A DNA stretch of 64,000 nt from positions 21,156 to 85,155 of IMG/VR virus record IMGVR_UViG_3300020048_000033; one strand, 5' to 3'. This document shows, piece by piece, positions 1-51,054 of this stretch (position 1 is its first letter; every line of letters starts with the position of its first letter). Under the pieces are notes generated by a model. That model ran no database searches. It was not told the DNA's origin and worked only from the letters and a program-made list of their open reading frames with translations. The DNA is from a virus. Taxonomy: Duplodnaviria; Heunggongvirae; Uroviricota; Caudoviricetes. Made by a program: the position numbers and the translations under genes.

Positions 1-28
1 CACCTCCGAAGAAATTACCCTCGATTCT

Positions 29-589
29 TTGAATCTTTCCGTAGAAGTTGCTTCTGCGGAAGATCGGGAACGGATTGCAAAAGAAACCGACTTCAAGGTT
101 GGTTCTCAGAAAATCTTTAAGGTTATCAACAAGGATACAGAAAAGGTTTTTGAATCAAAAGGTAAAACCAAGCTCCTGTATCATGGAAGCCGAAACGAAA
201 ACTATCTTTCCATCATGATGAATGGTTTGAAAGTTAATCCGGTCGGTGTCCAGATCAACGGTAAGATGTTTGGTTATGGAGTATACGCCGCAAACAAAGC
301 ACAGAAGTCCATTGGATATACCTCGCTGAGGGGTTCATGTTGGGCAACAGGTTCTTCCGACAAAGCCTATCTCGCAATTTTCGAGTTCAATCTAGGAAAA
401 ATGTGGGACATATTTGATGGTGGAAAACGCCATGATAGTTCCATGTGTTCTTTGAATGAGCAGAAGGTTAGCGCAAAAGGGTATGATTCGGTTTATGCAA
501 AAGGTGGTTATGATCTTCGTAACGATGAGTTCATTGTCTATCGTTCAACTCAATGTACTATCAAGTATCTTATAGAACTATCAAAATAA
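29..589 (+). CDS. PARP-like ADP-ribosyltransferase catalytic domain protein (N-terminus may lie upstream of the window)
   Basis: Protein carries the PARP catalytic signature in order: KLLYHGSRNENYLSIMMNGL (H-G-S), GKMFGYGVYAA (Y-G-x-G-x-Y-F-A), AYLAIFEFNLG, KGYDSVYAKGG and the C-terminal FIVYRSTQCTIKYLIEL, which resembles the PARP1 C-terminus. Confidence 0.55.
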   Translation: MNLSVEVASAEDRERIAKETDFKVGSQKIFKVINKDTEKVFESKGKTKLLYHGSRNENYLSIMMNGLKVNPVGVQINGKMFGYGVYAANKAQKSIGYTSLRGSCWATGSSDKAYLAIFEFNLGKMWDIFDGGKRHDSSMCSLNEQKVSAKGYDSVYAKGGYDLRNDEFIVYRSTQCTIKYLIELSK

Positions 590-756
590 ATTAAAGGGGG
601 AAAATATGTGGAGTGAAGTAGGTTATAACTGGTTTTCGCACAAACACAAACAAAGTAAATCCCGAGGCAAGAAATGCAAGGGATGCTTTGGTAACGGAAG
701 ACATTAAGTACACAATCTCTTCGGAGCTGTTTTTTTATTAGGATAGGAGAAATATT

Positions 757-1005
757 GTGGCAAAAGACAAAGATATGATTATGATCATAAAAGATGATGA
801 TGGTGATTGGCAGATTGCTGATGTAAAACAAAAGTTTGCAAGCTATGCTCTTGCCGAGTCTTATGCAGAAGGAATGATAGTTACCAGACGTGAATCTAAA
901 ATAAGTTTCAAGTTGGCAAAACTCACCTCAAACATTCTTTCAAATATTTCGAGAGAATCAAAATTTATCGAAGAAAAACTTCGTTCAAAAATGGAAGGAA
1001 TGTAG
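757..1005 (+). CDS. hypothetical protein
   Basis: ORF with start shortly after an AT-rich intergenic region. No recognisable motif. Confidence 0.3.
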   Translation: MAKDKDMIMIIKDDDGDWQIADVKQKFASYALAESYAEGMIVTRRESKISFKLAKLTSNILSNISRESKFIEEKLRSKMEGM

Positions 1006-1614
1006 ATGGTAAATCCTATAATACAAGATTACACAACAACTACCAAGTGGTATAAACTTCTTGGGATATTTTTTATTTTCTTCTTAGGATGGTTCATTAC
1101 CTGTTCAGTTATTATTACCGGTGCGTATTCTGGTCTATCAGGTGAAAGTCTCTCTATCGTCAATATGGACAGATTCGGTGGAATGCCCTTATGGGTTATC
1201 TTTGAAATTTATTTCTGTATTCCTTTTTCTCTTCTTGTAAGCCCTTTGTTTTATTTTTTGTATAAACCAAAGCCCTTTATTTTTGAGAAGTTTAAGATGG
1301 GGTATGTCCCTGTGAACTACCTTGACAAGGATTATGATTATCCAATAATTAATAATCTCCTTACTTTCAAGCCCAAGGACGTAAAGTGGATAAAAAACTT
1401 TTCTTTTGAAACAACCCTTAAATATTCCTCAACTAGGTATAACTACTTGCTGTTTCTTTCCGAGGATGGGGGAAAGTATCTATTTGATAAAACGTATTTT
1501 GCAGAAAATATTTTTCAAATAATGGAGCATGGTATAGTGAAGGAAACTTTCACATTTGATGTAAAGAGTAGTAGTCAGTATACTTTCACAATACTGCTCA
1601 AGGACTTGAAATAA
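1006..1614 (+). CDS. hypothetical membrane protein
   Basis: N-terminal half has two or three hydrophobic helices (LLGIFFIFFLGWFITCSVIITGAY; WVIFEIYFCIPFSLLVSPLFYFLY). Confidence 0.4.
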   Translation: MVNPIIQDYTTTTKWYKLLGIFFIFFLGWFITCSVIITGAYSGLSGESLSIVNMDRFGGMPLWVIFEIYFCIPFSLLVSPLFYFLYKPKPFIFEKFKMGYVPVNYLDKDYDYPIINNLLTFKPKDVKWIKNFSFETTLKYSSTRYNYLLFLSEDGGKYLFDKTYFAENIFQIMEHGIVKETFTFDVKSSSQYTFTILLKDLK

Positions 1615-1622
1615 GAGGACAT

Positions 1623-2042
1623 ATGGGAAACACTATTGTTAGAGAAAACTTGATGACAGAGAAAAACTACACCCCTTATTGTGGGTCTGAAACCTGTCGA
1701 TTAATGCCCAGAACAAACTTCAATGGAAGACAATTTGTGTGTCCTAATTGTGGATGGGTCTCAGAGTTCCCTTTGGAGTTTATTACTGAATATAAAAACA
1801 AATGGAATCTTTTAGATAAAAAAACATCCGAGCCTATAATCGTGAACGGAGGAGACTATACCCTTTATGTACGAGACCCAATTTCAGGTAAAGAGGTAAA
1901 GATTGTCCCTCGCCCCTGTTTAGTTCCTACAGGTACTCTCACAAGAACACTCACTCTTGAGTGTAGTCCTCCAGAGGATACTTTGGTAGAATTACCTAAG
2001 CCTTATACCAATGGTTCAAAATTTATGAGGAACAAAAAATGA
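1623..2042 (+). CDS. hypothetical zinc-ribbon protein
   Basis: CxxxC...CPNC cysteine pairs (CGSETC ... CPNCGW). Translationally coupled (ATGA overlap) to the downstream NMNAT gene. Confidence 0.4.
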   Translation: MGNTIVRENLMTEKNYTPYCGSETCRLMPRTNFNGRQFVCPNCGWVSEFPLEFITEYKNKWNLLDKKTSEPIIVNGGDYTLYVRDPISGKEVKIVPRPCLVPTGTLTRTLTLECSPPEDTLVELPKPYTNGSKFMRNKK

Positions 2043-2614
2043 AATTAGCTTTATTTGGTGGAACTTTTAATCCCATTCATAGGGGACATATCGAGATTGC
2101 AAAAAGGGTTCATGAAGAACTGGGATATGATAAAATAGTTTTCATGCCTAATAATAAGTCTCCCTTAAAGAATCCTTCCACAGGGTCAAGCAGTTTGGAT
2201 AGAATTGCTATGATAAATCTGGCAATAGGGGCTTATCCTTATATGAGTTTAAGTGAGTATGAGTCAAGGAAGAAAGGGGATTCCTTTACTATTGACACAA
2301 TTCAGTGGCTTCACCTAGTCTCGAATTTTGCAAGAATCCCTTACCAATTTGGTTTAATTATTGGAGAAGACCAAGCAAATGTTTTTGAACAGTGGAAAGA
2401 CTTCAAGGAAATCCTTGAACTTTCAGACATCATAATTGCAAATAGAGGTGAAAAAGAAATCACCTTCAAGTATCCGTATACCTCCTTGAAGAATGATTTT
2501 ATTAATATTTCTTCTACTGAGATTAGGCGTGATGTACTCGGACGTTCTGACGACCTAGATTTGAGTGTATTGAATTATATTTGTGATAACAGGCTTTATG
2601 GAGTTACTAAATGA
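2039..2614 (+). CDS. nadD: nicotinate/nicotinamide mononucleotide adenylyltransferase (NadD/NMNAT family)
   Basis: N-terminal LFGGTFNPIHRGH nucleotidyltransferase (H/T)xGH motif and ISSTEIR (ISST/SxT) motif typical of NMN adenylyltransferases. About 190 aa. Confidence 0.7.
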   Translation: MKLALFGGTFNPIHRGHIEIAKRVHEELGYDKIVFMPNNKSPLKNPSTGSSSLDRIAMINLAIGAYPYMSLSEYESRKKGDSFTIDTIQWLHLVSNFARIPYQFGLIIGEDQANVFEQWKDFKEILELSDIIIANRGEKEITFKYPYTSLKNDFINISSTEIRRDVLGRSDDLDLSVLNYICDNRLYGVTK

Positions 2615-2979
2615 AAATTACAATCCCGTTTTATATGTCCCAGTCCAGTAAAGAACGTGCTGAGTTTAAGCGACAAATGGTTGGACAGGGGATAAAGTTC
2701 CAGCTTCATGGGAAGGATGAGTTCCCTTATATTTGGAGCATGTATAATACTGAGGATTATGGTACAGAAGGGTCTGATATCTGCGTAATCACTTTTAATT
2801 CTGGTGTAAGAAAGGTAGATGCAAAAAAAAGGCTTCTTACTTTTCTTCAGGAAGAATGGCTTTGTATGAAACCAAGAAAATTTATGAATCTTATCAAAGA
2901 TCGGATTCTTTTGGAAGATCCTGAACAAGAGAATACTCTGTTTTTTAACTTTCATAGACTTGAAAAATTACTATACTAA
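2611..2979 (+). CDS. hypothetical protein
   Basis: ORF overlaps the upstream stop by 4 nt (operon-like). Confidence 0.4.
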   Translation: MKITIPFYMSQSSKERAEFKRQMVGQGIKFQLHGKDEFPYIWSMYNTEDYGTEGSDICVITFNSGVRKVDAKKRLLTFLQEEWLCMKPRKFMNLIKDRILLEDPEQENTLFFNFHRLEKLLY

Positions 2980-2985
2980 TTAATT

Positions 2986-3285
2986 ATGGAAAATAATTAT
3001 GAGAGAGATATTCGATTTTCTGAAATGATAGAAGATTTGGATGAACAGGACGAAAAAGATGCTCTCCTTAAAGTAGGAAAATATCTCTATACTGAATACC
3101 GTTATGTGTTTTCAGAGCTTGAAAAAGACTTAGCTATGGATTTTGAGGGTTTTATCGCAGATGCTTTAATGAAAGAGGATTCATTTGAACCTTTTGTTGA
3201 TGATGTTATGGTAGATATAAACTCAAATAAAAGAAGACACGCATCGTTAATTGCAACTATGCAAGTAGAAGAGATAGAGGAGTAG
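2986..3285 (+). CDS. hypothetical acidic protein
   Basis: ORF with Asp/Glu-rich composition. Confidence 0.35.
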   Translation: MENNYERDIRFSEMIEDLDEQDEKDALLKVGKYLYTEYRYVFSELEKDLAMDFEGFIADALMKEDSFEPFVDDVMVDINSNKRRHASLIATMQVEEIEE

Positions 3286-3290
3286 TAGTA

Positions 3291-3959
3291 ATGGACACAT
3301 TGAATGAGAGCGGGGAAGGTTCTATTAAGATTAAGAACTCCCTAAAAGGATTATCATTTTTCGCTGATTTGGATTTCTTTTTGAGAACCATAAGTGTTAA
3401 TGGGGATAAACGTGGATGTAGTGGATTCATTCAGAATATTGTGAATGGGAAAATTGCATATATCAGTACCGAACACAGTTACGTTTCAGGAAAGTCAGGA
3501 AAGTTTCTTATTCGAAGTGCAAAATCTTTGAAAGATTATACCGGTGGACAGAATATGTTTACTACATTGGAACAACTTCCTAAGTACATAACTGACCTTC
3601 TTTCCGACAAAGGTAAAGGAAGTTCCCTAGATTTTGATGGTGCTTTTGGTCAAGTGTATCGTGAAGCAGAAGAAAAACTTAAACCCCAGAGAGTTCAAAA
3701 GTCTTTCTATGGAAAGGCTCATGTGAACTCAAATGATGAAGCAGATGAAGGTAAATCAATAGTACTTAAATCTTACAGCACAAATGTTGCAGAAATTAAA
3801 GGTGACAAACTGTATGTGTATGGTTGGTATTCTTCTACAACCTGTCGTCATATAAATGAGTTTGCTTCCCAGAATGGTTTTTCTACTTTCTCCAAGAGAG
3901 ATATTGATGGAAAAACTACAGTATGGAATCACAGTGGCGAAGAAGTTTCTGATAATTAA
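3291..3959 (+). CDS. hypothetical protein
   Basis: 222-aa ORF, tightly packed with neighbours. Confidence 0.4.
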   Translation: MDTLNESGEGSIKIKNSLKGLSFFADLDFFLRTISVNGDKRGCSGFIQNIVNGKIAYISTEHSYVSGKSGKFLIRSAKSLKDYTGGQNMFTTLEQLPKYITDLLSDKGKGSSLDFDGAFGQVYREAEEKLKPQRVQKSFYGKAHVNSNDEADEGKSIVLKSYSTNVAEIKGDKLYVYGWYSSTTCRHINEFASQNGFSTFSKRDIDGKTTVWNHSGEEVSDN

Positions 3960-3970
3960 TTTTTCAGAAC

Positions 3971-4363
3971 TTGGAGGTTGTTTTTTTGGAACCCTTATAT
4001 ACCCCTAAACAAAGAACCTCTGTCGTAGTGGCAGGGGGTAGGGATTTTATACCCAACAGAAATCACATGAATTGGTTAATATCTATTATACAAAGTTTAA
4101 ATGCTGATGAGATTGTATCAGGTGGTGCCAAAGGCGCAGACCACTTCGGGGAACTTATCTGTGAAAAACTAAACTTAAAGTTAATAGTTTTTAAAGCTTA
4201 TTGGGACAAGTATGGAAAAAGAGCAGGTCATCTTCGCAATGAACAAATGGCTCGATATGGAACTCATGTCATTCTCTTTGAGGGTGGCAGAGGAACAGAC
4301 AATATGAGAATGAATGCTCATAAATATAAATTACCATTGTATGAATATAAGGACTCAAAATAA
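3971..4363 (+). CDS. SLOG/DUF2493-like Rossmann-fold protein (LOG/DprA-like superfamily)
   Basis: VVAGGRDF ... SGGAKGADHFGE motif pattern typical of phage DUF2493 / SLOG proteins. Confidence 0.45.
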   Translation: MEVVFLEPLYTPKQRTSVVVAGGRDFIPNRNHMNWLISIIQSLNADEIVSGGAKGADHFGELICEKLNLKLIVFKAYWDKYGKRAGHLRNEQMARYGTHVILFEGGRGTDNMRMNAHKYKLPLYEYKDSK

Positions 4364-4606
4364 ATGAACAATGAATACCGGACTTGTTATAACTATGCTA
4401 TTCAGGAAAAAGAATCTAAAGCAATGGGCAATATCCTCCAAAAATATGGGGAGATAGGTTTTAATTATCTAGTACTTTCCCAAGTAGCTGAAAGCGCATC
4501 TCAACTTACTGAGGAACAACTATCAACAAGTTCCTCAGATGTTCGAGCTATAATAGAAAAATTAATCGCAATTGATAAGTCGATAAAATGTGAAGGAAGA
4601 ATTTAA
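4364..4606 (+). CDS. hypothetical protein
   Basis: ORF. ATGA overlap to the next gene. Confidence 0.3.
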   Translation: MNNEYRTCYNYAIQEKESKAMGNILQKYGEIGFNYLVLSQVAESASQLTEEQLSTSSSDVRAIIEKLIAIDKSIKCEGRI

Positions 4607-4875
4607 TGATACCATCAAAAGAACTTTCAACAGAAACAAAAAACTATTTAGAATCAGTATTGAATGGAGTTCAGTCTTCAGAAGAAGACTATGACTTATC
4701 TGGATATAGTCCTAACACATTAATTACCTTCCTTGAATCCTTGGGAGCTGAACGTGGGGATATAGAAACAAATGGTTGGGATGTAGACTTCTGGATTCCT
4801 GTTAGTTATTTTGGAAGCTCATTTATGTTATCTGGTAGTTGGTACTATGGTACTTGTATCTTAACAAAGGGATAA
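4606..4875 (+). CDS. hypothetical protein
   Basis: ORF. Confidence 0.3.
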   Translation: MIPSKELSTETKNYLESVLNGVQSSEEDYDLSGYSPNTLITFLESLGAERGDIETNGWDVDFWIPVSYFGSSFMLSGSWYYGTCILTKG

Positions 4876-4888
4876 CAAAGGAATAAAA

Positions 4889-5437
4889 ATGGAAAAGAAT
4901 ACAAACACATATAAAATTATTCAATTTGGGGAAATTACTAAAAATAATATTCTCTATACAAAAGATTCACTAAAGGAACTGAATGAGTTGGTTCCAGTTA
5001 TTAGTAATTTATCTGAAACTAAAATTGTTGGAATGGCTTCAAATCTTAGAGTACTCGAAGACGGTTCTGTTTACATTGATATAGCCCTTACTAGCAAGGG
5101 TATTTCGGATAAAGATATTCGAAAGTATTTTAGGTTTTCTCCTTCTGGTACAGGAAATATGGAAGCTATTGATGGGTGCTACAAAATAACCAATTTTGAG
5201 CTTGACTCTGTAGAGATGTTTGAAAGAAACAATTTTGCTTTTAAGTTTGCATGTATTGTTGAATCCCTTGTTTCATTTATACCAAACATTTTTCAGTCCC
5301 TTAAGCATTGGATTGAAGTAGTAAAATACAGACGCTCAAAAGATGGAAGGGCATATCAGTCAGAACTTAGACGATTCCAGAATATCCCTACAATGAAGAA
5401 TGATTCAACCAATAGAAAAAGTGGAAAGGAGACTTAA
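4889..5437 (+). CDS. hypothetical protein
   Basis: 182-aa ORF. Confidence 0.4.
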   Translation: MEKNTNTYKIIQFGEITKNNILYTKDSLKELNELVPVISNLSETKIVGMASNLRVLEDGSVYIDIALTSKGISDKDIRKYFRFSPSGTGNMEAIDGCYKITNFELDSVEMFERNNFAFKFACIVESLVSFIPNIFQSLKHWIEVVKYRRSKDGRAYQSELRRFQNIPTMKNDSTNRKSGKET

Positions 5438-5836
5438 ATGGATACGTATGATGCTTATAGTGAGTTTGAGAGAAAACAAAGAAGGACAAGTTTCATAGTT
5501 AAAACTTGTGCATTGATAGGATTACTTTTAGTTGTTTGTTCAGCTATGGCAATCTATTTTAGTGTGAAATCAAAACCTGTTGATAAGCCTTATGAAAGAG
5601 GTCAATCCTTTGTTGAAAACGCAAAAAGCCTTGAGTCAGAGGATTCCCCTGCTAAAGAACTTCTTGACCTAATTAAGCTGAAAATGGAGTATGCCTATTT
5701 CGAGGGTCAGAAGGATGCTCTTAATGGTGATTTTAGAATTAAGAAGACCTATGAGGGCGTCTATGTTTGGGTGTCTTCCTGTTGGGATGAATCGTTAGAT
5801 CCAATGCTTTATGATCCCAGTGAAGAAGAAGAGTAA
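5438..5836 (+). CDS. hypothetical membrane-anchored protein
   Basis: One N-terminal TM helix (FIVKTCALIGLLLVVCSAMAIYF). Confidence 0.4.
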   Translation: MDTYDAYSEFERKQRRTSFIVKTCALIGLLLVVCSAMAIYFSVKSKPVDKPYERGQSFVENAKSLESEDSPAKELLDLIKLKMEYAYFEGQKDALNGDFRIKKTYEGVYVWVSSCWDESLDPMLYDPSEEEE

Positions 5837-6018
5837 TGGGTTCACAGGTATCAACCAGTATAGATTTTATTCGGGAGGATATTGAGGAAACTCAGAAGTT
5901 CCTTAATAGGAAATGTATGGGGAAAGAAGAAAACTACTTTCTGTCAAAGATGATTTCTGATGTAAATTATTTGCTTGGACTAACTGATATATTATTGGAG
6001 AACGCAAATGATAAATAG
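5836..6018 (+). CDS. hypothetical protein
   Basis: Short ORF coupled to the upstream gene. Confidence 0.3.
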   Translation: MGSQVSTSIDFIREDIEETQKFLNRKCMGKEENYFLSKMISDVNYLLGLTDILLENANDK

Positions 6019-6038
6019 AAAGGATTCATGCAATTAAA

Positions 6039-6251
6039 ATGATCTCTGCAACCTTGTCAGAAATCGAGACAAACTTTGTAGGTTTTTCGGATTCCTTGGT
6101 TAGTGTAATTAGGGAAGATAAGTCACCAGTTCTTATAGAAGTTACTGATAATGGTAAGTTCATAAGGTTTTTCGCTCAACCAGAGACTCAATCTCGGGAA
6201 GATATCTTGAAAATGCTAAAAGACCTGCTTTCCAAGCATCTGAAAAAATAG
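6039..6251 (+). CDS. hypothetical protein
   Basis: Short ORF. Confidence 0.3.
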   Translation: MISATLSEIETNFVGFSDSLVSVIREDKSPVLIEVTDNGKFIRFFAQPETQSREDILKMLKDLLSKHLKK

Positions 6252-6266
6252 TTAAAATAATGCAAA

Positions 6267-6313
6267 AAAGTTTTGAACTTTTCCTGAAAATCCTATATAT
6301 TATATATGTAGGG
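6267..6313 (+). promoter_or_regulatory. conserved phage promoter-like motif, class A (AAAAGTTTTGAACTTTTCCTGAAAATCCTATATATTATATA), copy 1
   Basis: Near-identical ~45-bp intergenic element present 7 times in the window. AT-rich TATATTATATA -10-like end. Here it precedes a roughly 400-nt non-coding tRNA-like region. Confidence 0.55.
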
Positions 6314-6613
6314 AAATACGGAACTACATTGGTAGTTTCAACTACAGAAGGGACAATCTGGTCTGCTACTTCCCTTCTGTGATAATAGACTTGATCAGCT
6401 TGAGATCACAGATTTCTGCCTGTTGCCTTTAATGGTATTGGTGGCACTTAGTCTGTCGGTTCCTTGCGGGTGGCTCCAGTGATCAAGTAGGTAAAGTTTG
6501 TCCTAGATACCCCAACTTATCTTCGGGTTATCCTGCTCTGGACAGTTAAAACCTCGTGGGTTTCCACATGGTCTTTACCAACCTACACCTCGCTCCTTTC
6601 TTTACCTTACTGG

Positions 6614-6689
6614 CAGGGTATTTATTCGAGATGGTCGAATAGTTTTCCGTATGGAGAACTCATAAAGGTTCGAATCCTTTTACCTTGAC
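6614..6689 (+). ncRNA. tRNA-like element (acceptor CAGGGTA/TACCTTG, T-arm AAAGG-TTCGAAT-CCTTT, atypical D and anticodon arms)
   Basis: Canonical T-loop and a pairing acceptor stem. D-arm is a 7-bp hairpin and the anticodon loop is non-standard (6 or 8 nt). Confidence 0.3.
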
Positions 6690-6715
6690 TAACTTAATTT
6701 ACGGGGAGGTTATCA

Positions 6716-7246
6716 ATGACTATATATACAGTGAAAGGGAAATTCTTTCAAGAAAAAGGATATTCTGATAATAACTTCTTCAAGGACTTTAAGTTGTTGA
6801 TTATGTTATATGATAGTATTGCTAAGGCAACAATACTTGAAACTTTACACGAAACTCACCCAGATGTAGGTAAGATAGATCCTGTTCTTAGAATACGAAA
6901 TGAACAGTCAATTGCTAGTGACCTGAAACATATGGATGTAATTAGTGAAAGACTTATTGAGTTCTTAGAATCTGCAAGAAAGAGCAATTACAATGATTTT
7001 GTTACAAACCAGAGCTTTAATACAAACGCTCAGGTTTCCCTTCATATTCATAATAATCTTGTTCGGGCTATAAAGTATCTTAAGGATGAAAAAGAAAAAG
7101 AGTTTTCCAAATCAACTGCAAAAGAGGCAGAAGATAAGATTATTGAAATAGTGGATTGGTTTAATGAGGAAGCATCTTCCTCCAAGCGAAGGTCTGAAAA
7201 GGATATCCGAGTTTTTATCAGTTTTAATTGGCCCGAGGAAACTTAA
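6716..7246 (+). CDS. hypothetical protein
   Basis: 176-aa ORF. Confidence 0.4.
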   Translation: MTIYTVKGKFFQEKGYSDNNFFKDFKLLIMLYDSIAKATILETLHETHPDVGKIDPVLRIRNEQSIASDLKHMDVISERLIEFLESARKSNYNDFVTNQSFNTNAQVSLHIHNNLVRAIKYLKDEKEKEFSKSTAKEAEDKIIEIVDWFNEEASSSKRRSEKDIRVFISFNWPEET

Positions 7247-12959: not shown

Positions 12960-13319
12960 ATGGATTCAGGAACTTTTGCGTCTATTAAGGATTACAAATC
13001 CTTAGCCTATGTTATGGATCAGATAAATAAAATGTTGGCATCAGATTCAGAAAAACATAACGCATATAAATTATCATTGTTTATTAATAAGTTTAATAAA
13101 GCTTGTATTCAGCTAGAAGTAATGAATGCTATCAATCACTTGGAAATAATTTTAAATGGTAGTTTTAATATACAACTTTTTGTTAACCTCATGTGGAAAG
13201 ACTATCAAGAAAAAATAGAAAAAGAACTAACATATATTAATGACCCAGTATTAATAAGTCACTTGAAAAATTTTATGTACACAAAATTAAAAGTTTCTGG
13301 TGGACTTATATCTTTGTGA
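12960..13319 (+). CDS. hypothetical protein
   Basis: ORF. Confidence 0.35.
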   Translation: MDSGTFASIKDYKSLAYVMDQINKMLASDSEKHNAYKLSLFINKFNKACIQLEVMNAINHLEIILNGSFNIQLFVNLMWKDYQEKIEKELTYINDPVLISHLKNFMYTKLKVSGGLISL

Positions 13320-13341
13320 AAATAAACCTTTGGAGGTTATT

Positions 13342-14340
13342 ATGAAAATTAAAGTGATTGGTTGCGGCGGAGCTTTCACCGAAGAACTTTATCATCAGTG
13401 TTTTATGCTTTCAGAAAATGGAAGAAACTTATTTATCGATTATGGACAACAGATTCAACCCTTTGCTCTTAAGAATGCAGGGTTAACTGTTAAAGATGTG
13501 GATGAAGTTATCATTACACATTGTCATGATGACCATGTTCTGTCCCTTGGAATGCTAGGGCTGAGACGGTATGACTTTATTAATAAACCTCAAAACTGTA
13601 AGGATACAAAGATTCCTTATGCGCCTAAATTGATTATTAATCATAACCTTTTATCGGAGATTAATGATATCACTAAGGGAAACTTTAGAACTATTGAAGG
13701 CTTTGTTTCTACACTTGATACTTTCTTTGATGTTAAGGTTCTCCAAGATAATGAGCCTTATTTTTTTGAGGGCTGGAAAGTAGATATGGTTCAACAGATT
13801 CATGTAATGACTGGATCAACCGTAATGTATTCCTATGGGGTATTTTTTGAAAAAGGGGATAAGTCCTTTTTAATTACCTCCGATACTCAATATTTTCAAC
13901 CTAGACAAGTACACTATTTTTATAAAAAAGCAAACTTAATTATCACAGATTGTGAAACAATTGGAACAAACTTTCAATTTCAAGAGGGTGAAAAGGTTTA
14001 CATTAAAGATGGAAAGCCCTATAGGTATCCTGTTCAAGCAGACGATCCCGATGGAATGAAATCTTTAGAAATTATGACTAAAGGATATGAAATAAAAGAT
14101 TGGGAATGTTTTAAGTTTATGTCTGGGGTTCATAGTTCCTATTGTGAGTTAGCTGGATATAAATCCGCTAATGCAATGATACTTTCCTCAGACATCAAAG
14201 ATAAGACCTGGTTATCCCATTATGGAGATCATGTTATTCATGGTGTTGATGCTTTCGGAAATAAAGTGGATTGGGACGCACAAGCTAAGAAAGATGGATT
14301 TGCAGGTTTTGTAAAACTTGGTCAGGTATTCGAAGTTTAA
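13342..14340 (+). CDS. metallo-beta-lactamase-fold hydrolase (RNase Z/PhnP-like)
   Basis: MKIKVIGCGGAF ... ITHCHDDH (HxHxDH zinc-binding motif) after the likely true start MKIKV at 13342. Confidence 0.55.
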   Translation: MKIKVIGCGGAFTEELYHQCFMLSENGRNLFIDYGQQIQPFALKNAGLTVKDVDEVIITHCHDDHVLSLGMLGLRRYDFINKPQNCKDTKIPYAPKLIINHNLLSEINDITKGNFRTIEGFVSTLDTFFDVKVLQDNEPYFFEGWKVDMVQQIHVMTGSTVMYSYGVFFEKGDKSFLITSDTQYFQPRQVHYFYKKANLIITDCETIGTNFQFQEGEKVYIKDGKPYRYPVQADDPDGMKSLEIMTKGYEIKDWECFKFMSGVHSSYCELAGYKSANAMILSSDIKDKTWLSHYGDHVIHGVDAFGNKVDWDAQAKKDGFAGFVKLGQVFEV

Positions 14341-14433: not shown

Positions 14434-15045
14434 TTGGATGTTAAAATGAAAAAAGATTTAGTAAAATATGAATGGATAGCACAACTCCCCTCAGACACTA
14501 CCTTTGTAGTTTTTGATACGGAGACAACAGGGTTATCTCCAAATGATAATCGAGTAATAGAAATCGGTGCAATACGTTTTCATTATAAGAAGGAATTGGA
14601 AGAGTTTGATTATCTGATTAATCCTGAGACAGTAATCCCTTATAATATTACTAAATTGACAAGCATTACAAATGATATGGTAAAGAATGCTCCGACCGCT
14701 AAGGATATCGTACCAAAGTTTTTAGAGTTTATTGGTGATGCAATATTGATTGCACATAATGCTTCTTTTGATATTAATTTTATTAATGCTGAGTTGGCAA
14801 GGTTATCCCTTCCTCCCCTGACTAATAAAGTAATTGATACCAGATACTTAGCACAAGCTTTATTCACAAAAGAAACTAATTATAAGTTACAGACTCTTGC
14901 TGAGAGTTTTAAGATCGAAGTACTTGCCGCACATAGAGCTAATGATGATTCTAGGGTATGTATGAAACTTTTTCTTATTTGTATTCGGGAATTATATAAA
15001 GAAATTAAACCTGTTCGCAAAGAGAAACTTAAGGAAGTTGTTTAA
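14434..15045 (+). CDS. DnaQ-like 3'-5' exonuclease (DEDDh family, Pol III epsilon-like)
   Basis: Exo I FVVFDTETTG, Exo II ILIAHNASFDINFI, Exo III HRANDDSRV motifs in correct order and spacing. Confidence 0.7.
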   Translation: MDVKMKKDLVKYEWIAQLPSDTTFVVFDTETTGLSPNDNRVIEIGAIRFHYKKELEEFDYLINPETVIPYNITKLTSITNDMVKNAPTAKDIVPKFLEFIGDAILIAHNASFDINFINAELARLSLPPLTNKVIDTRYLAQALFTKETNYKLQTLAESFKIEVLAAHRANDDSRVCMKLFLICIRELYKEIKPVRKEKLKEVV

Positions 15046-17104: not shown

Positions 17105-18490
17105 AACTAGTTCCACCTTAAAAGGTGGAATCTTCGTTTTTCGTTTCATCAAAACTGCTTTCAACTTTAGAAGATTCTAAAGCTAAAGAGGCAAGTTTCT
17201 CTACGGAGGCTTGTTCCAAGCACTCAGCTCTTTTAGTCGAGCCAAACAATTTCACATTCCTTGATGCATGAACATCCCGATCCTCGGTATATCCACAACT
17301 ACACTTATATGTCCTTTCACTTAACGGTATTGTATTCAACACTCCACAGCTTGGACAGTATTTCGTAGTTGGCATCCATTTACTGATTTTATAAGAACGA
17401 TCTGATTTCTCTAACTCAAGTAGCTTTGTTTTTACTCTTCCTAAATAGGAACTCTGAATAACTCTTGCAAACCCTTTGTTAGACTTCTTCCACTTTGACA
17501 ACTGCTCATCTTGAAAATATACTATATCATAGTCTTTCAGGAAATACGCAATCAGCTTGTTGGAATCATCTGTCTTCTTATTCGTTAAATGTTCGTACTC
17601 TTTCTTTATCTGTTTGAGACAATTATAGTATCGCTTTGACCCTTTTTCTTTCTTACTCAGCTTTCTTTGTAAGAACTTTAAATGGTCACTTTCTTGCACA
17701 CTACAATTGAATTTCTCTCCCTCAGATGTTGTTATGTTATCTTTAATTCCAAAGTCAAGTCCTACAGACTTACCTGTTTGTTCTCTCTTTTTAGAATCTT
17801 TTTCAATCATTATTGAAATGTTAATATATAATCCAGAAGCTTTTTTTATAAACTTGGCATTTGCTAATTCGTAGTTTGGATATTTCAGGAGCTGTTCCAG
17901 TCCGTACACTTTTAAATTTGCAAAGCCCGGTATTGTAATATGAGAGTTTCCACGAATTTTTAACCAAGGGCCAGTAATTATAGGAATACAATTAACTTCT
18001 TTTTTAAACTTAAGTCGTCCTACTTTGTTACCTTTCTTTTTAATTTTAGATAAAGTAACGATATCTTGTTTTTTTGATTGAACCAAAGCTCTGTGCATGA
18101 CAGAACTCAAAGTAATGTCTGAGATTACTTCATTTTTATCTTTATCGAAATGAGTTACTTTTTTATGTTCGAGATAATCATATTTGAAGATGTCAGTTGA
18201 ATTGAGCATATCATTTACAACCCACTTTGCTTGAGTGAAAGCGAAGTACATTTCAGATAATTTTTCTTTAGGGATTTGGTGAACATTGACTTTAAGTTCT
18301 AAGACTTTACAAGACTGATTTAGTCTACGGAGTTTAGTATTTTTAAGAGACTGTTTAATTTTATTGTTTGTATCTATTGATGACGGTCTCATATATTAAC
18401 TAACTCCTTATATTTAATTAGTTGTAGTTAATTAAAAGACTTATAGTTGGAAACTTCTTTATTCCACCTTAAAAGGATGGAATCTTACGA
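17105..18490 (-). mobile_element. IS200/IS605-family tnpB-only insertion element (IS1341-like)
   Basis: TnpB ORF is bracketed by near-identical subterminal hairpins in direct orientation (17109-17130 TTCCACCTTAAAAGGTGGAATC; 18462-18486 TTCCACCTTAAAAGGATGGAATC). No tnpA is present. Confidence 0.6.
17118..18392 (-). CDS. tnpB: TnpB (OrfB) RNA-guided endonuclease-like transposon protein
   Basis: C-terminal zinc finger CPSCG...CSCG followed by RuvC-III-like DRDVHASRNV. 424 aa. Confidence 0.75.
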   Translation of the reverse strand: MRPSSIDTNNKIKQSLKNTKLRRLNQSCKVLELKVNVHQIPKEKLSEMYFAFTQAKWVVNDMLNSTDIFKYDYLEHKKVTHFDKDKNEVISDITLSSVMHRALVQSKKQDIVTLSKIKKKGNKVGRLKFKKEVNCIPIITGPWLKIRGNSHITIPGFANLKVYGLEQLLKYPNYELANAKFIKKASGLYINISIMIEKDSKKREQTGKSVGLDFGIKDNITTSEGEKFNCSVQESDHLKFLQRKLSKKEKGSKRYYNCLKQIKKEYEHLTNKKTDDSNKLIAYFLKDYDIVYFQDEQLSKWKKSNKGFARVIQSSYLGRVKTKLLELEKSDRSYKISKWMPTTKYCPSCGVLNTIPLSERTYKCSCGYTEDRDVHASRNVKLFGSTKRAECLEQASVEKLASLALESSKVESSFDETKNEDSTF

Positions 18491-19453: not shown

Positions 19454-19740
19454 CGCAATCGGAAGAGGCACAAGACTCGGAAGATTCAGAAAAGGGTTGG
19501 ATATGAACCATAATAAAATATTCTAGTAGTGAAAGGGTTAGGTTACGCTTTTGCTAAAGTATATGTTATCCGTAGACATATGCGAATAACCTCCTTAGGC
19601 TAATACCTTTGGAAATTAAGGAACGGAAAAGCTTTTAGGTTTTAAATGTTTACCTACGTGTAAAGGTGAAAAACTGCCATTTTATTTCTTGTTGGGGTGG
19701 TACCCAACTTGAAGGATTTTGACAAGGGAAAGCGATTGGA

Positions 19741-19812
19741 TTTTCTATAAGCTCAGTGGATAGAGCTATGGTTTTTTAGCCGTGGTCGTTGGTTCGTGTC
19801 CAACTAGAAGAT
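19741..19812 (+). pseudogene. tRNA-like element with a degenerate anticodon arm (TTTTTT loop)
   Basis: Perfect D-arm GCTCAGTGGATAGAGC, T-arm GTTGG-TTCGTGT-CCAAC, acceptor TTTTCTA/TAGAAGA. No pairable anticodon stem. Confidence 0.3.
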
Positions 19813-20220
19813 TCCAGTGATGGTTTACAATTACCAATTGTGGCTATCTCCTTGTTATAAAGAACTTATTGCTAGGGTCAGGCTCCTCTATTGAGAGAGC
19901 GGAATAGTTGGTGTCGAAGCCAGCCTGACCAATAGAGGGGAAGTTCGAATGTCCCCTTGAATACGATATATTAAAGTATACGTTAATATATATTATCGAT
20001 ACCTATGAAGTTTTTTTGGAAAAACAGCGACTATAACGGTCGGAGACAGGGACGGTTCGATGCCCCCCTTAGGTAAAGGTTGATGACAAACCTTAAGTCA
20101 TTATAGAGAAATATTAAAAGGATGGATACAGATGAAACAGATCAAACGTATCCTCAAGAATACATAGCGGTTTTTAAGTCCGTGTATTTTTGAGGTAAAG
20201 CAAACACTTAAAAATATTAC

Positions 20221-21068: not shown

Positions 21069-21309
21069 GAAGATTATAGGGAATATAAAGTATATGTATT
21101 ACAATGACGCAAAGTTTTGTAATAAATTATCTTCAAGTAATCTTACCTTAGAAGTATACATGGTAAGAGTTCTTAGTGATAAAAGTTGGTATAAGGTTTA
21201 TAAAGAAACTTTTAGGGAGTTTAAGAAAACCATGAAGGTTTCCATAAAACTTGCTTTGAGAAAAATTAAAGAGCTTAGTAAAGAAAATAATGTTATTTGC
21301 AGTTTGTAA
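21034..21309 (+). CDS. hypothetical protein
   Basis: Short basic ORF. Confidence 0.25.
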   Translation: MPKDYYLLVNAKKIIGNIKYMYYNDAKFCNKLSSSNLTLEVYMVRVLSDKSWYKVYKETFREFKKTMKVSIKLALRKIKELSKENNVICSL

Positions 21310-22400: not shown

Positions 22401-22473
22401 GCTTTGATAGACTAGTGGTAAGTCTCCCATCTTTTTTGATGGGAAAACAGAGGTTCGATTCCTCTTTAAGGCT
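22401..22473 (+). ncRNA. tRNA-like gene with poly-U anticodon loop (stem CCCATC/GATGGG, loop TTTTTT)
   Basis: D-arm GACTAGTGGTAAGTC, T-arm AGAGG-TTCGATT-CCTCT, acceptor GCTTTGA/TTAAGGC (2 wobbles). Possibly a UUU anticodon in a 6- or 8-nt loop. Confidence 0.35.
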
Positions 22474-25043: not shown

Positions 25044-25162
25044 GGGGCGGTAGCTTAGTTGGTAGAGCAACAGTATGTAACAAAAGAGGTTTGTAAAAAT
25101 CTCATACAGCGAGTAATAACAATTGGAACTGTGTGTCGGTGGTTCGAATCCACCCTGCCCCA
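25044..25162 (+). ncRNA. tRNA-like gene interrupted by a ~50-nt insertion carrying the ACAGCGAGTAA motif
   Basis: Acceptor GGGGCGG/CTGCCCC, D-arm GCTTAGTTGGTAGAGC, T-arm GGTGG-TTCGAAT-CCACC. Anticodon stem halves ACAG...CTGT are separated by CAAAAGAGGTTTGTAAAAATCTCATACAGCGAGTAATAACAATTGGAA. Confidence 0.4.
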
Positions 25163-28767: not shown

Positions 28768-28839
28768 GCCCCTATGGTGAAGAGGTATCATTTCGGAATC
28801 TAAATCTGATAGTCGAAGGTTCGATTCCTTCTAGGGGCA
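28768..28839 (+). tRNA. suppressor-type tRNA, anticodon CUA (reads UAG amber)
   Basis: Acceptor GCCCCTA/TAGGGGC perfect, T-arm GAAGG-TTCGATT-CCTTC, anticodon stem TCGGA/TCTGA with 7-nt loop ATCTAAA (U33 and A37 present). Anticodon C-T-A at 28800-28802. Confidence 0.65.
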
Positions 28840-31205: not shown

Positions 31206-31484
31206 ATGGGAATTAATTTTGATGGTATGGAAGAGTTTGCCGATTCTTCTTGTTTTGGAGAAGCCAGACATCTTGCTTCTGAGTATCATGGCGGTCAGTG
31301 GTCTGACCTTTATAAGCTTTCCTGTGGAAAGTGGGATGCGTGGGAACGCTCAGATGTAGAAGGTATGATTCTTGAATTTGAAAAATGCAAAGAGTTTGCT
31401 TCTGCTGAGGATGAATCAAATATAGATGAAGCACTTGATTGCTTACTATCTGCACTTGAGTTTTATCCAGAGGAAGAAGAATAG
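31206..31484 (+). CDS. hypothetical acidic protein
   Basis: 92-aa ORF. Confidence 0.3.
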   Translation: MGINFDGMEEFADSSCFGEARHLASEYHGGQWSDLYKLSCGKWDAWERSDVEGMILEFEKCKEFASAEDESNIDEALDCLLSALEFYPEEEE

Positions 31485-31514: not shown

Positions 31515-32507
31515 TTGGAGGTGCTAATGCAAAATCGTTATGAAGAAACTTCGTCAATGGATACGAAGGCAATTGTGAAGTTGGTTAAGAAGGTAGCTAT
31601 TGGTTTGGGAATTATTCTCCTTGCCCTTATTCTTAATCCCGTTTCTTGTGTAGGAAAAAGTGAGAGAGGTATTAAACTTCGTCTCGGAGCAGTACAGGAT
31701 GGAGTTTTGTTGCCGGGTGTGGCACTTAAGATTCCGGTAATCGAGTCCATTGATACCTACAGCATTGTTCCTAACAAGGAGATAATTTCAATTCCTGTGG
31801 GAAACGAAGGGGCTATCACTACTGACAACCAAACAATTGGCGCAACCTTCGAGGTATACTGGAAATACAAAGATACTCGTATTGCAGAAATTGCTCGTGA
31901 ATACACGAACGCCCGTCTTACTGAACTTATCAGTACAAATACGAAAGCGGCAATTAAATCTACAATTGGTTCCTATACAATTTTTGATCTTGCCAGTAAG
32001 CAAACCATTATCACTTCTGGTGTACTTAATATTCTTAAAGAAAATACTGCTAAGTATCCTGTAGAAATCGTTGAAGTTCGTAATACAAACTATACATGGT
32101 CAGACGATTTTGATAAGGCAATTAAAGAAACCCAGAAGATGAAGCAGGAAGTATTGCAGAAGGAACAGGAAGTTTCAAAAGCAACCCTTGAGTTCTCCAA
32201 GCAGGTTGCAGAAGCAGATGCCAAGCGCAAGGTAACTGAAACCCAAGCAGAAGCAAAAATGAATGCAACTATTATTGAAGCTAGGGGAGCACTTGAATCT
32301 GCAAAGCTTAACAAGCAAGCGAAGATTGAAGAAGGTCTTGGTATTAAGTCATTCAATGAATCACTTGCCGCCAACCTTTCGACTGAACTTAAACTTCGTG
32401 AGTTGTCCAATGAACTTGCAAGGATTGAAAAGTGGGACGGAAAATATGTATCTGTTCAGAATTATACCCCTATCCCAATTCAACAGGGTTCACTTCTCGG
32501 AAAGTAA
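31515..32507 (+). CDS. SPFH/band-7 (prohibitin/HflK-like) domain protein with N-terminal TM helix and C-terminal coiled coil
   Basis: TM segment VAIGLGIILLALILNPV followed by an SPFH-like region (GIKLRLGAVQDGVLLPGVALKIPVIESIDTYSIVP...) and a long EQEV/AEAK coiled coil. Confidence 0.45.
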   Translation: MEVLMQNRYEETSSMDTKAIVKLVKKVAIGLGIILLALILNPVSCVGKSERGIKLRLGAVQDGVLLPGVALKIPVIESIDTYSIVPNKEIISIPVGNEGAITTDNQTIGATFEVYWKYKDTRIAEIAREYTNARLTELISTNTKAAIKSTIGSYTIFDLASKQTIITSGVLNILKENTAKYPVEIVEVRNTNYTWSDDFDKAIKETQKMKQEVLQKEQEVSKATLEFSKQVAEADAKRKVTETQAEAKMNATIIEARGALESAKLNKQAKIEEGLGIKSFNESLAANLSTELKLRELSNELARIEKWDGKYVSVQNYTPIPIQQGSLLGK

Positions 32508-45283: not shown

Positions 45284-45335
45284 CCCCTTATTTATCTATA
45301 TTTCTTGTTCCAGAAACTGCTAAAATAATTAGTGA

Positions 45336-45382
45336 AAAAGTTTTGAACTTTTCCTGAATATCCTATATATTATATAGGTAGA
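45336..45382 (+). promoter_or_regulatory. class A promoter-like motif, copy 5 (between cas3 and cas5c)
   Basis: AAAAAGTTTTGAACTTTTCCTGAATATCCTATATATTATATAGG. Confidence 0.5.
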
Positions 45383-45481
45383 GTTCTATTGAATATTAAA
45401 CCTCAATACACTTAATTAAACAAATGTACTTGTCAAAAATATGTCAAGTACATTATACACTCTAAAAAGGATTAAACTTAA

Positions 45482-46156
45482 ATGAATGCAATATCCTCAA
45501 AATATGGTGCTCTTAAATCAAGGGTAGAGCTTGTGGCTTATGGAGAAAACGCTTGCTTTAAGGACCCAGTATGGAAAACAGAGGGTCTTACCTACCCATG
45601 TATCACCCCATCGGCTTCAAGAGCTATACTAGAGTCGGTGTTTTGGCATCCTCCGATGTATTATGATATTGTGTCAATAGAGGTTTTAAAGCCTATAATA
45701 AAAACACTGACCTGTGTAGTTGAACCCAATACCTATGGTATAGACGGAGTTTTGAGACACTATATGTATCTAAGAGATGTATCCTATCATATTGTTGCTG
45801 ATATAGTTATGAAGAATGGTGTCACAATAGATGAAAATAAAAATGCAATAAAGTATATGAGTATTTTTAATAGGAGACTACAGAAAGGTCAAACTTTTAA
45901 GGCTCCTTTCCTCGGAATAAGTCAATGCTTATGTGATGTTAGGGAATATGTTCCTCTTGAGGATATCCCTACAAAAGAAAATTATTATATAGGAAATATG
46001 CTATTAGAGATGAATCATAAAAAATCTGGGGTAGAGCCAATATTTATGGATGAGGCTCAAATAAAAAATGGCGTACTTTGTAATGGGGAACAGTCCCTTG
46101 AAGACGCCATACTAGAAAAAACATCTTATAGAAAAGAGGAAGTGTATATTGCGTGA
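45482..46156 (+). CDS. cas5c: Cas5c (Cas5d) crRNA-processing subunit, type I-C
   Basis: Family-conserved blocks VELVAYGENACFKDP, ASRAILESVFWHP, HYMYLRDVSYHIVADI, FKAPFLGISQC align with Cas5d. Confidence 0.8.
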   Translation: MNAISSKYGALKSRVELVAYGENACFKDPVWKTEGLTYPCITPSASRAILESVFWHPPMYYDIVSIEVLKPIIKTLTCVVEPNTYGIDGVLRHYMYLRDVSYHIVADIVMKNGVTIDENKNAIKYMSIFNRRLQKGQTFKAPFLGISQCLCDVREYVPLEDIPTKENYYIGNMLLEMNHKKSGVEPIFMDEAQIKNGVLCNGEQSLEDAILEKTSYRKEEVYIA

Positions 46157-48128: not shown

Positions 48129-48129
48129 A

Positions 48130-49191: not shown

Positions 49192-49203
49192 CTTTTTGAG
49201 TAA

Positions 49204-49256
49204 ATTGGAGTTATTTTTATTAAGTGCGAACCTACTGTTACCAGAAAATCCCTTGG
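49204..49256 (+). promoter_or_regulatory. leader-region stem-loop (GTGCGAACC...GGTTCGCAC) between cas7c and the array
   Basis: 9-bp inverted repeat. A second GAGGTTCGCACTAAG copy lies 70 nt downstream. Could be the cas-operon terminator/attenuator or a leader structure. Confidence 0.3.
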
Positions 49257-49367
49257 AGGTTCGCACTCCTTGCCCTGTATAGACTTAGGTGATTTTATAT
49301 TAAAAAACTTGGTTACAAACTATCATAATTCTGAGGTTCGCACTAAGTATAGGGTAAGTCTATATCA

Positions 49368-49389
49368 TGTAAGGGTTTATATATTAGTA
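49368..49389 (+). promoter_or_regulatory. array promoter-like element (AAGGGTTTATATATTAGTA) abutting repeat 1
   Basis: Same GGTT(A/T)ATATA..TTAGTA motif that precedes every variant-repeat unit. Confidence 0.4.
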
Positions 49390-50956: not shown

Positions 50957-50992
50957 GTAATATCAGAGGATAGTCTGTAATATTTTCTTAAT

Positions 50993-51020
50993 CACCACAA
51001 TCCTCTTGGGATTGTGGTGA
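50993..51020 (+). terminator. perfect 10-bp stem-loop (CACCACAATC-ctcttgg-GATTGTGGTG) after the last array repeat
   Basis: Inverted repeat seen directly in the sequence. No strong T-tract follows. Confidence 0.3.
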
Positions 51021-51054
51021 AGATGTGTAAGTGAAATTAAAATTAGGGTTAATA

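Follow-up and report, generated by a model that had tools for sequence, protein, structure and literature searches.

We analysed a 64,000-nucleotide stretch of Caudoviricetes DNA (positions 21,156 to 85,155 of IMG/VR record IMGVR_UViG_3300020048_000033), referred to here as the window, which opens within a gene for a poly(ADP-ribose) polymerase (PARP) and carries shortly downstream a gene for a NadD-type adenylyltransferase. In the explanation that we favour, with a probability of about 0.6, the PARP is a nucleic acid-activated enzyme in a repair and replication block of the phage genome, and NadD is a separately captured gene that possibly supports NAD+ supply. The two genes would thus represent separate acquisitions within an early DNA/RNA-metabolism block, and not a dedicated two-gene system. 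This explanation draws on the identities, architectures, catalytic residues and distributions of the two proteins; we infer the activation of PARP by breaks, its targets and its metabolic coupling to NadD.

The source of the DNA is a large phage of ~164 kb: the window lies at approximately 42,275-106,274 on the 163,769-bp metagenomic contig ena:ERZ27262925:k141_287602. Sequence upstream of the window was obtained from two contigs, L001 and L004, which are 100% identical to the window across the overlap. Two scans of JGI metagenome contigs for exact DNA matches recovered no further part of the source contig. No nucleotide similarity between the window and deposited phages was found.

The phage gene is predicted to encode a full PARP1/2/3-type enzyme

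The frame of the open reading frame (ORF) at 29-589 is open from window base 2, indicating that the TTG start at position 29 is an artefact of the window edge. The start of the complete gene, which encodes a protein of 393 amino acids (aa; P0001), is 593 nt upstream of the first window base. The window therefore holds the 3' half of a WGR, helical and PARP catalytic domain protein (residues ~198-393; positions 1..589, plus strand, with coding sequence read from 2). The fragment encoded in the window matched the Pfam PARP family PF00644 with an E-value of 8.7e-24 (84.6 bits; cutoff of 26.7) and the sequences of crystallised PARP2 and PARP1 with an E-value of 2e-12 (about 1e-12). The full-length protein matched PF00644 with an E-value of 7.4e-23 (81.5 bits) and, through its WGR domain, PF05406 with 28.8 bits (cutoff of 22). 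This domain contains the literal motif NWGRVG. The Pfam PARP_reg domain was not detected in the full-length protein.

The motifs HGS, FGYGVYAA and NDEFIVY are all present, the last aligning with YNEYIVY of PARP2, the motif that holds the catalytic glutamate. In an alignment of 47 relatives, the H-Y-E triad (H259, Y293 and E374) was invariant. K300, S301 and Y304, which in the alignment correspond to the KSxxY in the donor-site region of PARP2, were likewise invariant, as were G33 and R34 of the WGR motif. The PARP catalytic signature on which the original prediction was based is thus genuine, and its wording held for HGS and for the C-terminal glutamate motif but not for 'YFA', which is YAA in the protein.

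An AlphaFold2 model of PARP based on the alignment of the 47 relatives had a mean pLDDT of 87.2 and a pTM of 0.83. The model comprises an N-terminal β-sheet domain (sheet at residues 4-45), a helical bundle at residues ~87-197 and an ADP-ribosyltransferase (ART) fold. The modelled helices, spanning residues 87-107, 117-134, 141-154 and 172-197, form a four-to-five-helix bundle. According to Foldseek searches of the PDB, the best matches were chains of PARP2 and PARP1 on DNA double-strand breaks (E ~1e-22), with query-normalised TM-scores of 0.65-0.69 over ~465 columns extending from the WGR through the catalytic regions. More specifically, the β-sheet at residues 4-45 superposes on the WGR-containing PARP1/2 chains. 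The H-Y-E triad, for which a check by structure prediction had been proposed, was intact. Together, the domains, the invariant residues and the modelled fold indicate that the phage protein is a full PARP1/2/3-type enzyme with WGR, helical and ART domains, rather than just a 'PARP-like' one.

The PARP family is large, with relatives on 298 IMG/VR contigs and 2,383 proteins at E ≤ 1e-5 in the indexed database. Bacterial relatives occur in the Microscillaceae, Cytophagales and Oscillospiraceae. The best deposited phage homologue, from an uncultured 462-kb phage (LR756500.1), shares 41% identity, and all deposited ones share 28-41%. In several GenBank phages, the homologue is annotated as a poly(ADP-ribose) polymerase.

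NadD is a long-resident, bacterial-type phage gene

The second gene (2039..2614, plus strand) encodes a 191-aa NadD-type nicotinate/nicotinamide-mononucleotide adenylyltransferase. The protein scored 145 bits against the equivalog family TIGR00482 (curated cutoff of 112.45) and aligned end to end with structures of nicotinate mononucleotide (NaMN) adenylyltransferases, including that of Bacillus subtilis (1KAM; E 2.4e-20). Both the HxGH motif (H14-R-G-H17) and the ISSTxxR motif (I157-R163) are kept, and the protein retains all columns that are invariant among 13 aligned NadDs. The conserved residues are H14, G16, H17, R55, E75, G109, D111, W119, R136, I157, S158, S159, T160 and R163. A variant sequence, SPLK, replaces the usual PPHK and is shared by some bacterial NadDs. 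The enzyme, its (H/T)xGH motif and its activity motifs were therefore as predicted, but the label of nicotinamide mononucleotide (NMN) adenylyltransferase (NMNAT) was not: the protein belongs to the bacterial NadD family, and PHROG 3462 (NMNAT) matched residues 1-27 only (E 0.0045). NadD is a textbook enzyme whose bacterial family members usually prefer NaMN; as judged by its sequence, the phage protein could prefer either NaMN or NMN.

The nadD gene overlaps both of its neighbours, a 139-aa zinc-ribbon ORF at its start and a 122-aa ORF at its stop; in each case, the stop codon of one ORF and the start codon of the next share an ATGA. The GC content of nadD (0.354) equals the window mean. These overlaps with both neighbours and the matching GC content indicate that nadD is a long-resident phage gene of bacterial type that was captured long ago, and not an assembly chimera. 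In an indexed search of 5.8 billion proteins, the closest relatives shared ≤38% identity with the phage protein. They are encoded by chromosomal housekeeping nadD genes of bacteria, one set of which shows the customary nadD-rsfS arrangement. Phages very rarely encode NadD-type adenylyltransferases: a survey of 50,697 phage records yielded one other credible gene, from a 735-kb megaphage, which encodes a MazG-like-NadD fusion and has no PARP in its vicinity. Most of the NadD-like matches in 'phage' records were discounted, as they were short or labelled 'UNVERIFIED_ORG' and are probably bacterial DNA.

The PARP-NadD pairing is private to this phage

To compare gene neighbourhoods, we assembled 112 PARP loci comprising 83 of the 298 matching IMG/VR viral contigs together with the contigs of the closest relatives (50-57% identity), two GenBank phages and 22 contigs from GTDB genomes. 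In tblastn searches, the phage NadD had a neighbouring counterpart in 1 of 61 dereplicated PARP clusters, that one being this phage. Similarly, a NadD profile hidden Markov model (HMM; 103 sequences) applied to the 5,560 ORFs of the 112 loci identified a true NadD only in this phage, and the nearest PARP relatives (50-57% identity) had no NadD nearby. The pairing is thus private to this phage among the loci surveyed. It is therefore not a conserved NAD module, which had been the central claim of the original prediction; what survives of that claim is the identity of the two enzymes and the fact that both handle NAD+ or its precursors.

The remaining matches to the NadD HMM, at 26-27 bits, were PPAT-like-HD fusion proteins. 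We considered these fusions (L002, L018, L019, L046 and L102) as hidden NMNATs and rejected them, as NCBIfam places them with CoaD at 82-129 bits. Such a fusion often occurs in huge PARP phages, 1.8-4 kb upstream of PARP (e.g., L002 4139-5299; L018 7221-8255). It combines a CoaD-like domain with an apparent HD domain, whose motifs were read from the sequences, and the order of the two domains varies by lineage.

The stop of PARP and the start of nadD are 1.45 kb apart. NadD had been placed two genes downstream of PARP; three called ORFs (757-1005, 1006-1614 and 1623-2042) in fact lie between them, as does a possible 33-codon ORF (MWSEVGYNWFSHKHKQSKSRGKKCKGCFGNGRH; 606..707, plus strand) in the 167-nt gap that follows PARP. 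The latter was not called as a gene in L004. Its candidate peptide is very basic, and a strong Shine-Dalgarno-like sequence, AAAGGGGG, precedes it. The first called ORF (757..1005, plus strand; called in L004) encodes 82 aa and ends in a TAG with the next ORF directly in frame. It had no family match and no homologue in the other PARP loci. The second (1006..1614, plus strand) encodes an apparent membrane protein of 202 aa with a hydrophobic N-terminal half, for which there was no Pfam or PHROG match, no match to PnuC and no homologue in the other PARP loci. The third (1623..2042, plus strand) is the 139-aa zinc-ribbon ORF, whose Pfam matches to zinc ribbons were weak and none above threshold. 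On the far side of nadD, the 122-aa ORF (2611..2979, plus strand), the start of which overlaps the nadD stop, had no family match. A scan of positions 1-7000 found promoters and terminators no more often than in shuffled sequence, and there was no terminator in the PARP-nadD interval.

The zinc-ribbon domain occupies the N-terminal ~60 aa of its ORF (window 1623-1810) and is a strongly conserved, widespread four-Cys domain, with 284 cluster representatives at E ≤ 1e-3 and 50-70% identity. It occurs mostly in standalone proteins of 60-100 aa and sometimes at the C terminus of longer ones. In the closest full-length relative of the 139-aa ORF (59% identity), the next gene is unrelated and is not nadD. 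Thus, although the zinc-ribbon ORF is coupled to nadD in this phage, we rejected it as a NadD partner, as it is a widespread standalone phage domain.

Two further genes in the vicinity are linked to NAD+. Located 4.6 kb upstream of PARP is an ART-PolyVal ADP-ribosyltransferase gene (55 bits; L004 5431-6099), which overlaps the terminal part of a gene for a GGDEF-domain protein (148 bits; L004 4359-5447). A VCH_CASS14 gene adjoins this pair on the opposite strand. Downstream of NadD, a gene for a DUF8033 protein (3291-3959) is followed by one for a YAcAr-family SLOG-domain protein (3971..4363, plus strand; PF10686, 32.7 bits against a cutoff of 28.2; PHROG 289, E 2e-22). The YAcAr gene is 1.4 kb downstream of nadD, and its product had no sequence match in the PDB. 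Its family is predicted to process signals derived from NAD+ or ADP-ribose (PMC7824862). A NUDIX hydrolase gene is located about 15 kb upstream of PARP.

One possibility is that a hyperplastic accessory region carries PARP and NadD as unrelated passengers, with no metabolic tie between them. The uniqueness of the pairing, the three unrelated intervening ORFs and the translational coupling of nadD to two flanking ORFs without family matches, rather than to PARP, are all consistent with pure coincidence, as is the lack of NadD beside the closest relative of the zinc-ribbon neighbour. We nevertheless consider this somewhat unlikely: PARP is a heavy consumer of NAD+, and four NAD-linked genes (ART-PolyVal, PARP, NadD and YAcAr) fall within 9.5 kb, making a selective link through the NAD+ pool plausible. 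In the ~96 kb of sequence inspected, this clustering has a nominal p of ~0.004, a post hoc figure for a genome that is organised in functional blocks. We regard it as a weak hint and did not treat it as evidence for a system.

We also scanned for the partners that a NAD+ pathway and ADP-ribosylation would entail. The scan covered the 64-kb window, 21 kb upstream of PARP and 10 kb past the 3' end of the window, totalling ~96 of 163.8 kb (record positions ~20.9-116.7 kb). It included every window ORF of ≥60 aa and, for the flanks, precomputed Pfam matches and direct scans of most upstream ORFs. None of NAMPT/NAPRTase/NadV, the PRPS-like Adps, Namat, PnuC, the NadR kinase (RNK) domain and NadE was present in this sequence. 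The NAMPT/NadV or ADPR-pyrophosphokinase partner that had been anticipated upstream was accordingly found neither there nor in the window and the 10 kb beyond it.

These results bear on the possibility that the genes constitute a counter-defence module. NadD would then be the NMNAT half of a salvage pathway resembling NAD+ reconstitution pathway 2 (NARP2), with NAMPT encoded elsewhere in the genome. The pathway would rebuild NAD+ lost to Thoeris, DSR or SIR2-type defences, and PARP would modify host or defence proteins. PARP and NadD do both handle NAD+ or its precursors, and the ART-PolyVal, YAcAr SLOG and NUDIX genes lie within the same ~20 kb. Moreover, NARP2 genes need not adjoin, as the defining paper scores them per genome (10.1101/2024.02.11.579819), and a distant NAMPT is possible given that ~96 of 163.8 kb were inspected. 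However, no NAMPT, Adps, Namat, PnuC or NadR/RNK was found in that interval, and the enzyme is of the NadD type and not the NatV/NadR type of KVP40. In addition, this phage was the only one of the 112 PARP loci to have NadD near PARP, and phage records very rarely contain NadD-type genes, the one further credible case having no PARP nearby. We therefore judge a counter-defence module to be very improbable.

PARP genes recurrently neighbour nucleic acid ligases

In this phage, a gene for an Rnl2-family RNA ligase (L004 9216-9872) ends 132 nt upstream of the PARP start. The ligase scored 96.9 bits against PF09414 and matched the PHROG 'RNA ligase' family with an E-value of 3e-68; it had no sequence match in the PDB. 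In relatives whose PARP is 50-54% identical, a gene for an ATP-dependent DNA ligase starts 11-926 nt downstream of PARP. In these same relatives, genes for a T4-type RNA ligase 1 (Rnl1) and a polynucleotide kinase (PNK)-like kinase follow the DNA ligase gene, and those for a CCA-adding enzyme, an RlaP nucleotidyltransferase and NrdD/NrdG are upstream of PARP. The order PARP-then-DNA ligase, on the same strand and at distances of 11-2,036 nt, recurs in at least four PARP clades, between which identity is ≤46% for PARP and ≤30% for the DNA ligases. Adjacency of PARP and ligase genes in relatives was seen at loci L088, L089, L091, L029, L016, L048, L020 and L036.

Overall, a DNA or RNA ligase was encoded within 10 kb of PARP in 25 of the 61 clusters and within 1.5 kb in 8. 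T4-type Rnl1 was near PARP in 12 clusters, RlaP in 10, a CCA-adding enzyme in 6 and a PNK-like kinase in 4. The distances of the ligases were skewed toward PARP, with a median of 2.2 kb (Kolmogorov-Smirnov (KS) p 0.0014 versus uniform). These data are suggestive of a PARP-ligase link, which is much better supported than the PARP-NadD link.

Among bacterial homologues, four PARP genes were on Microscillaceae/Cytophagales contigs (L103, L107, L109 and L110, the last from an 882-kb contig). In L110, a gene for a PolyA_pol/HD-type CCA-adding enzyme is located ~430 nt downstream of PARP, and tblastn with the phage CCA-adding enzyme gave a match at the corresponding position of L103, L107 and L109. 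As these taxa are related, the arrangement may have been inherited from a single origin.

An alternative role for PARP is in host takeover or anti-defence. According to this alternative, PARP would resemble Alt, ModA and ModB of T4, or AcrIF11, in ADP-ribosylating RNA polymerase, translation factors or defence complexes. The WGR domain would only localise PARP to targets bound to nucleic acids, and the ligases would lie nearby as a result of shared early expression. This role was proposed for jumbo-phage PARPs by Iyer et al. 2021, who cite the XacN1 homologue (PMC7824862). PARP is located among accessory and conflict genes, including those for ART-PolyVal, GGDEF, CRISPR-Cas and tRNAs, and the finding of no eraser of ADP-ribosylation in the ~96 kb fits irreversible modification of host targets. 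By contrast, the invariant Gly-Arg of the WGR motif and the kept helical domain point to allosteric activation that depends on nucleic acids and not to a constitutive, toxin-like activity. Further, the PARP-then-DNA ligase order, which spans clades ≤46% identical, is hard to explain by co-expression alone. We consider this alternative to be unlikely.

Proposed functions of PARP and NadD

In the explanation that we favour, a separately captured NadD accompanies a nucleic acid-activated PARP. By analogy with human PARP1-3, HaPARP and CdPARP, the WGR domain would bind a nucleic-acid break or end. Binding would release autoinhibition by the helical domain, and the ART domain would then move ADP-ribose from NAD+ to PARP itself, to nearby proteins or to phosphorylated nucleic-acid ends. 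PARP would most likely work with the ligase and end-repair enzymes that are recurrently encoded next to it. NadD is predicted to adenylylate NaMN or NMN with ATP, yielding nicotinate adenine dinucleotide (NaAD) or NAD+. The most economical role for NadD would be that of an auxiliary metabolic gene that sustains flux into the NAD+ pool during infection and incidentally serves PARP. The NAD+ users so served would be PARP, the ART-PolyVal transferase and the YAcAr SLOG protein; NadD possibly also covers depletion of host NAD+.

Several points weigh against this explanation. In PARP, the residue that aligns with the PARP2 tyrosine two before the catalytic glutamate (YNEY) is an invariant asparagine. 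An H-Y-E triad is no guarantee of polymer formation, as human PARP3 and PARP4 carry the triad yet add single units. The sequence is compatible with either a polymer or a single-unit product. We found no biochemical or functional study of any phage PARP in the literature searched, and none of the erasers PARG, macrodomain and ARH in the ~96 of 163.8 kb inspected. Because NadD by itself cannot turn nicotinamide into NAD+, what it contributes is tied to host enzymes. The statistical support for the ligase association is no more than moderate: a binomial test for a ligase within 1.5 kb was not significant (p 0.08-0.34, depending on the assumptions), and both this test and the KS test are affected by contig truncation and shared ancestry and include no correction for phylogeny. 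Finally, the cluster of four NAD-linked genes weakly hints at a shared dependence on the NAD+ pool that is underplayed by a description as independent genes.

A more far-reaching proposal, which we hold to be doubtful, is that the phage WGR-PARP and the adjoining ligases constitute a virus-encoded break-response pathway. PARP would sense nicks or ends that host nucleases, such as restriction enzymes, CRISPR or anticodon nucleases, generate in phage DNA or RNA. ADP-ribosylation of PARP itself or of phosphorylated ends would protect the ends or recruit the neighbouring ligase, and NadD, in this phage alone, would feed the demand for NAD+. If this were true, the pathway would be the prokaryotic-virus counterpart of eukaryotic PARP-ligase strand-break repair.

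Other features of the window

The window has a GC content of ~35%, and 85 of its 103 ORFs, obtained by simple longest-ORF selection, are on the plus strand. The host is probably Treponema, which is a hint only, from NrdD and the PARP relatives. The best bacterial matches of NrdD, encoded beside the PARP locus (L097 10001-13054), are from Treponema and other Spirochaetia. Further, the closest PARP relatives among GTDB genomes (47-49% identity; L099 and L101 are among these host-hint loci) are on contigs binned into Treponema metagenome-assembled genomes.

A type I-C CRISPR-Cas locus spans positions 42854-51350, with cas3 at 42854-45283, cas5 at 45482-46156, cas8c/Csd1 at 46149-48128 and cas7 at 48130-49191. 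The array that follows cas7 has ~28 repeats of 32 nt each (GTCACTCCCCGTGCGGGGGTGTGGATTGAAAC) with a period of 66-67, the copies at the far end being degenerate. No cas1, cas2 or cas4 was seen among the scanned ORFs.

At least 28 tRNA genes occur at window positions 9409-62699, all on the plus strand. They include an amber-suppressor-type tRNA with the anticodon CTA (28768-28839, plus strand; Rfam, 59.9 bits), two tRNAs whose anticodon loops are unusual (19740-19816 and 22401-22473, the latter with a four-base anticodon; plus strand) and a 119-nt tRNA detected by Rfam only that is probably intron-bearing (25044-25162, plus strand). At two sites, the frame of an ORF that ends in TAG runs on into the next ORF: from 757-1005 into 1006-1614, and from 31206-31484 into an SPFH gene at 31515-32507. 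We rejected recoding of TAG: across the window, reading TAG as sense lengthened ORFs no more than did reading TGA or TAA as sense. The ORF at 1006-1614 also has its own ribosome-binding site, GGAAGGA, and we therefore kept the standard code. Given this lack of window-wide support, the suppressor tRNA(CUA) may serve genes elsewhere in the phage genome. Peptidyl-tRNA hydrolase PTH2 matched 2 of 50 small window ORFs that were scanned as a batch (best E 2.6e-25), which fits with translation-related cargo such as the tRNAs.

A metallo-β-lactamase-fold protein is encoded at 13300-14340. Its match to the anti-Pycsar nuclease Apyc1 fell below threshold (41.4 bits; cutoff of 50), and the protein could act either in tRNA processing or as a cyclic-nucleotide phosphodiesterase. 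A gene for a DEDDh exonuclease follows at 14434-15045. Within the tRNA-rich stretch, a TnpB/Cas12f-like gene (OrfB_IS605 and TNB domains; 17118-18392) is one of the few minus-strand genes of the window.

Significance

Phage PARPs and phage NAD-synthesis genes have both been described, and both proteins are members of known families; the interest of the present findings is therefore modest. It lies in a very rare phage NadD outside NARP1-3 and in the recurrent association of PARP with ligases. The large PARP family with recurrent ligase neighbours provides a testable lead for a break-sensing or end-modification function in phages. A phage-borne NadD outside NARP1-3 suggests that the NadD step is another point at which phages may increase NAD+ supply. 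Were the phage NadD to accept NMN, one gene could be enough to link NMN made by the host to the resynthesis of NAD+.

Comparison with known systems

Phage homologues of PARP have been on record since 2014, including those of Cellulophaga phage phi4:1 and Aeromonas phage Aeh1 (PMC4245714). The homologue in Xanthomonas phage XacN1 has been discussed as a possible host-modifying enzyme (PMC7824862). This homologue (ORF414/BBA65562.1) and those of Cellulophaga phages phi4:1 and phi17:2 share 31-33% identity with the phage PARP. The layout of WGR, helical and catalytic H-Y-E domains predicted for the phage protein is common to WGR-PARPs of bacteria and phages, including HaPARP of Herpetosiphon aurantiacus, CdPARP of Clostridioides difficile CD160 and the phage homologues. 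The activity of HaPARP is DNA-dependent, and CdPARP is active in vitro (PMC8120803). For the 'Clade 1' PARPs of Cytophagales and Clostridiales, models reveal a helical bundle where Pfam fails to detect the regulatory domain (PMC5966428). The phage PARP, having a helical bundle in its model and no Pfam PARP_reg, fits this type. The HaPARP and CdPARP systems have a PARG, whereas none was found in the ~96 kb of this phage, the lineage of which pairs PARP with ligases instead.

The phage PARP shares with human PARP2 and PARP1 (6X0L and 4DQY) the three-domain fold, as modelled, the H-Y-E triad and the Lys, Ser and Tyr residues of the donor-site KSxxY. However, it is ~20% identical to these enzymes, lacks the zinc-finger, BRCT and N-terminal tail regions, has asparagine for tyrosine two before the catalytic glutamate and has no known HPF1-type partner.

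The phage NadD aligns over its full length with bacterial NadDs of ~190 aa, namely B. subtilis YqeJ (1KAM) and the Staphylococcus aureus enzyme (2H29), with E-values of 1e-19 to 2e-20, and has both motifs. It differs in being phage-encoded, ≤38% identical and in having SPLK for PPHK.

As judged by gene content, the ~96 kb inspected does not match any of the NAD+ reconstitution pathways described in phages. NARP1 and NARP2 are defined in 10.1101/2024.02.11.579819, and NARP3 in PMC13464706. NARP1 comprises Adps and Namat, and there was no Pribosyl_synth or NAPRTase family match in this sequence. NARP2, as in Vibrio phage KVP40, comprises NAMPT and an NMNAT; the present enzyme is of the NadD type and not the NatV type, and NAMPT was absent from the same interval. 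NARP3 comprises PnuC and a NadR-like NMNAT-RNK, whereas the 191-aa NadD is without a kinase domain and the 202-aa membrane ORF did not match PnuC. What this phage shares with all three pathways is a phage-encoded enzyme for forming the adenylyl-pyridine nucleotide bond of NAD+, which presumably increases the supply of NAD+ during infection.

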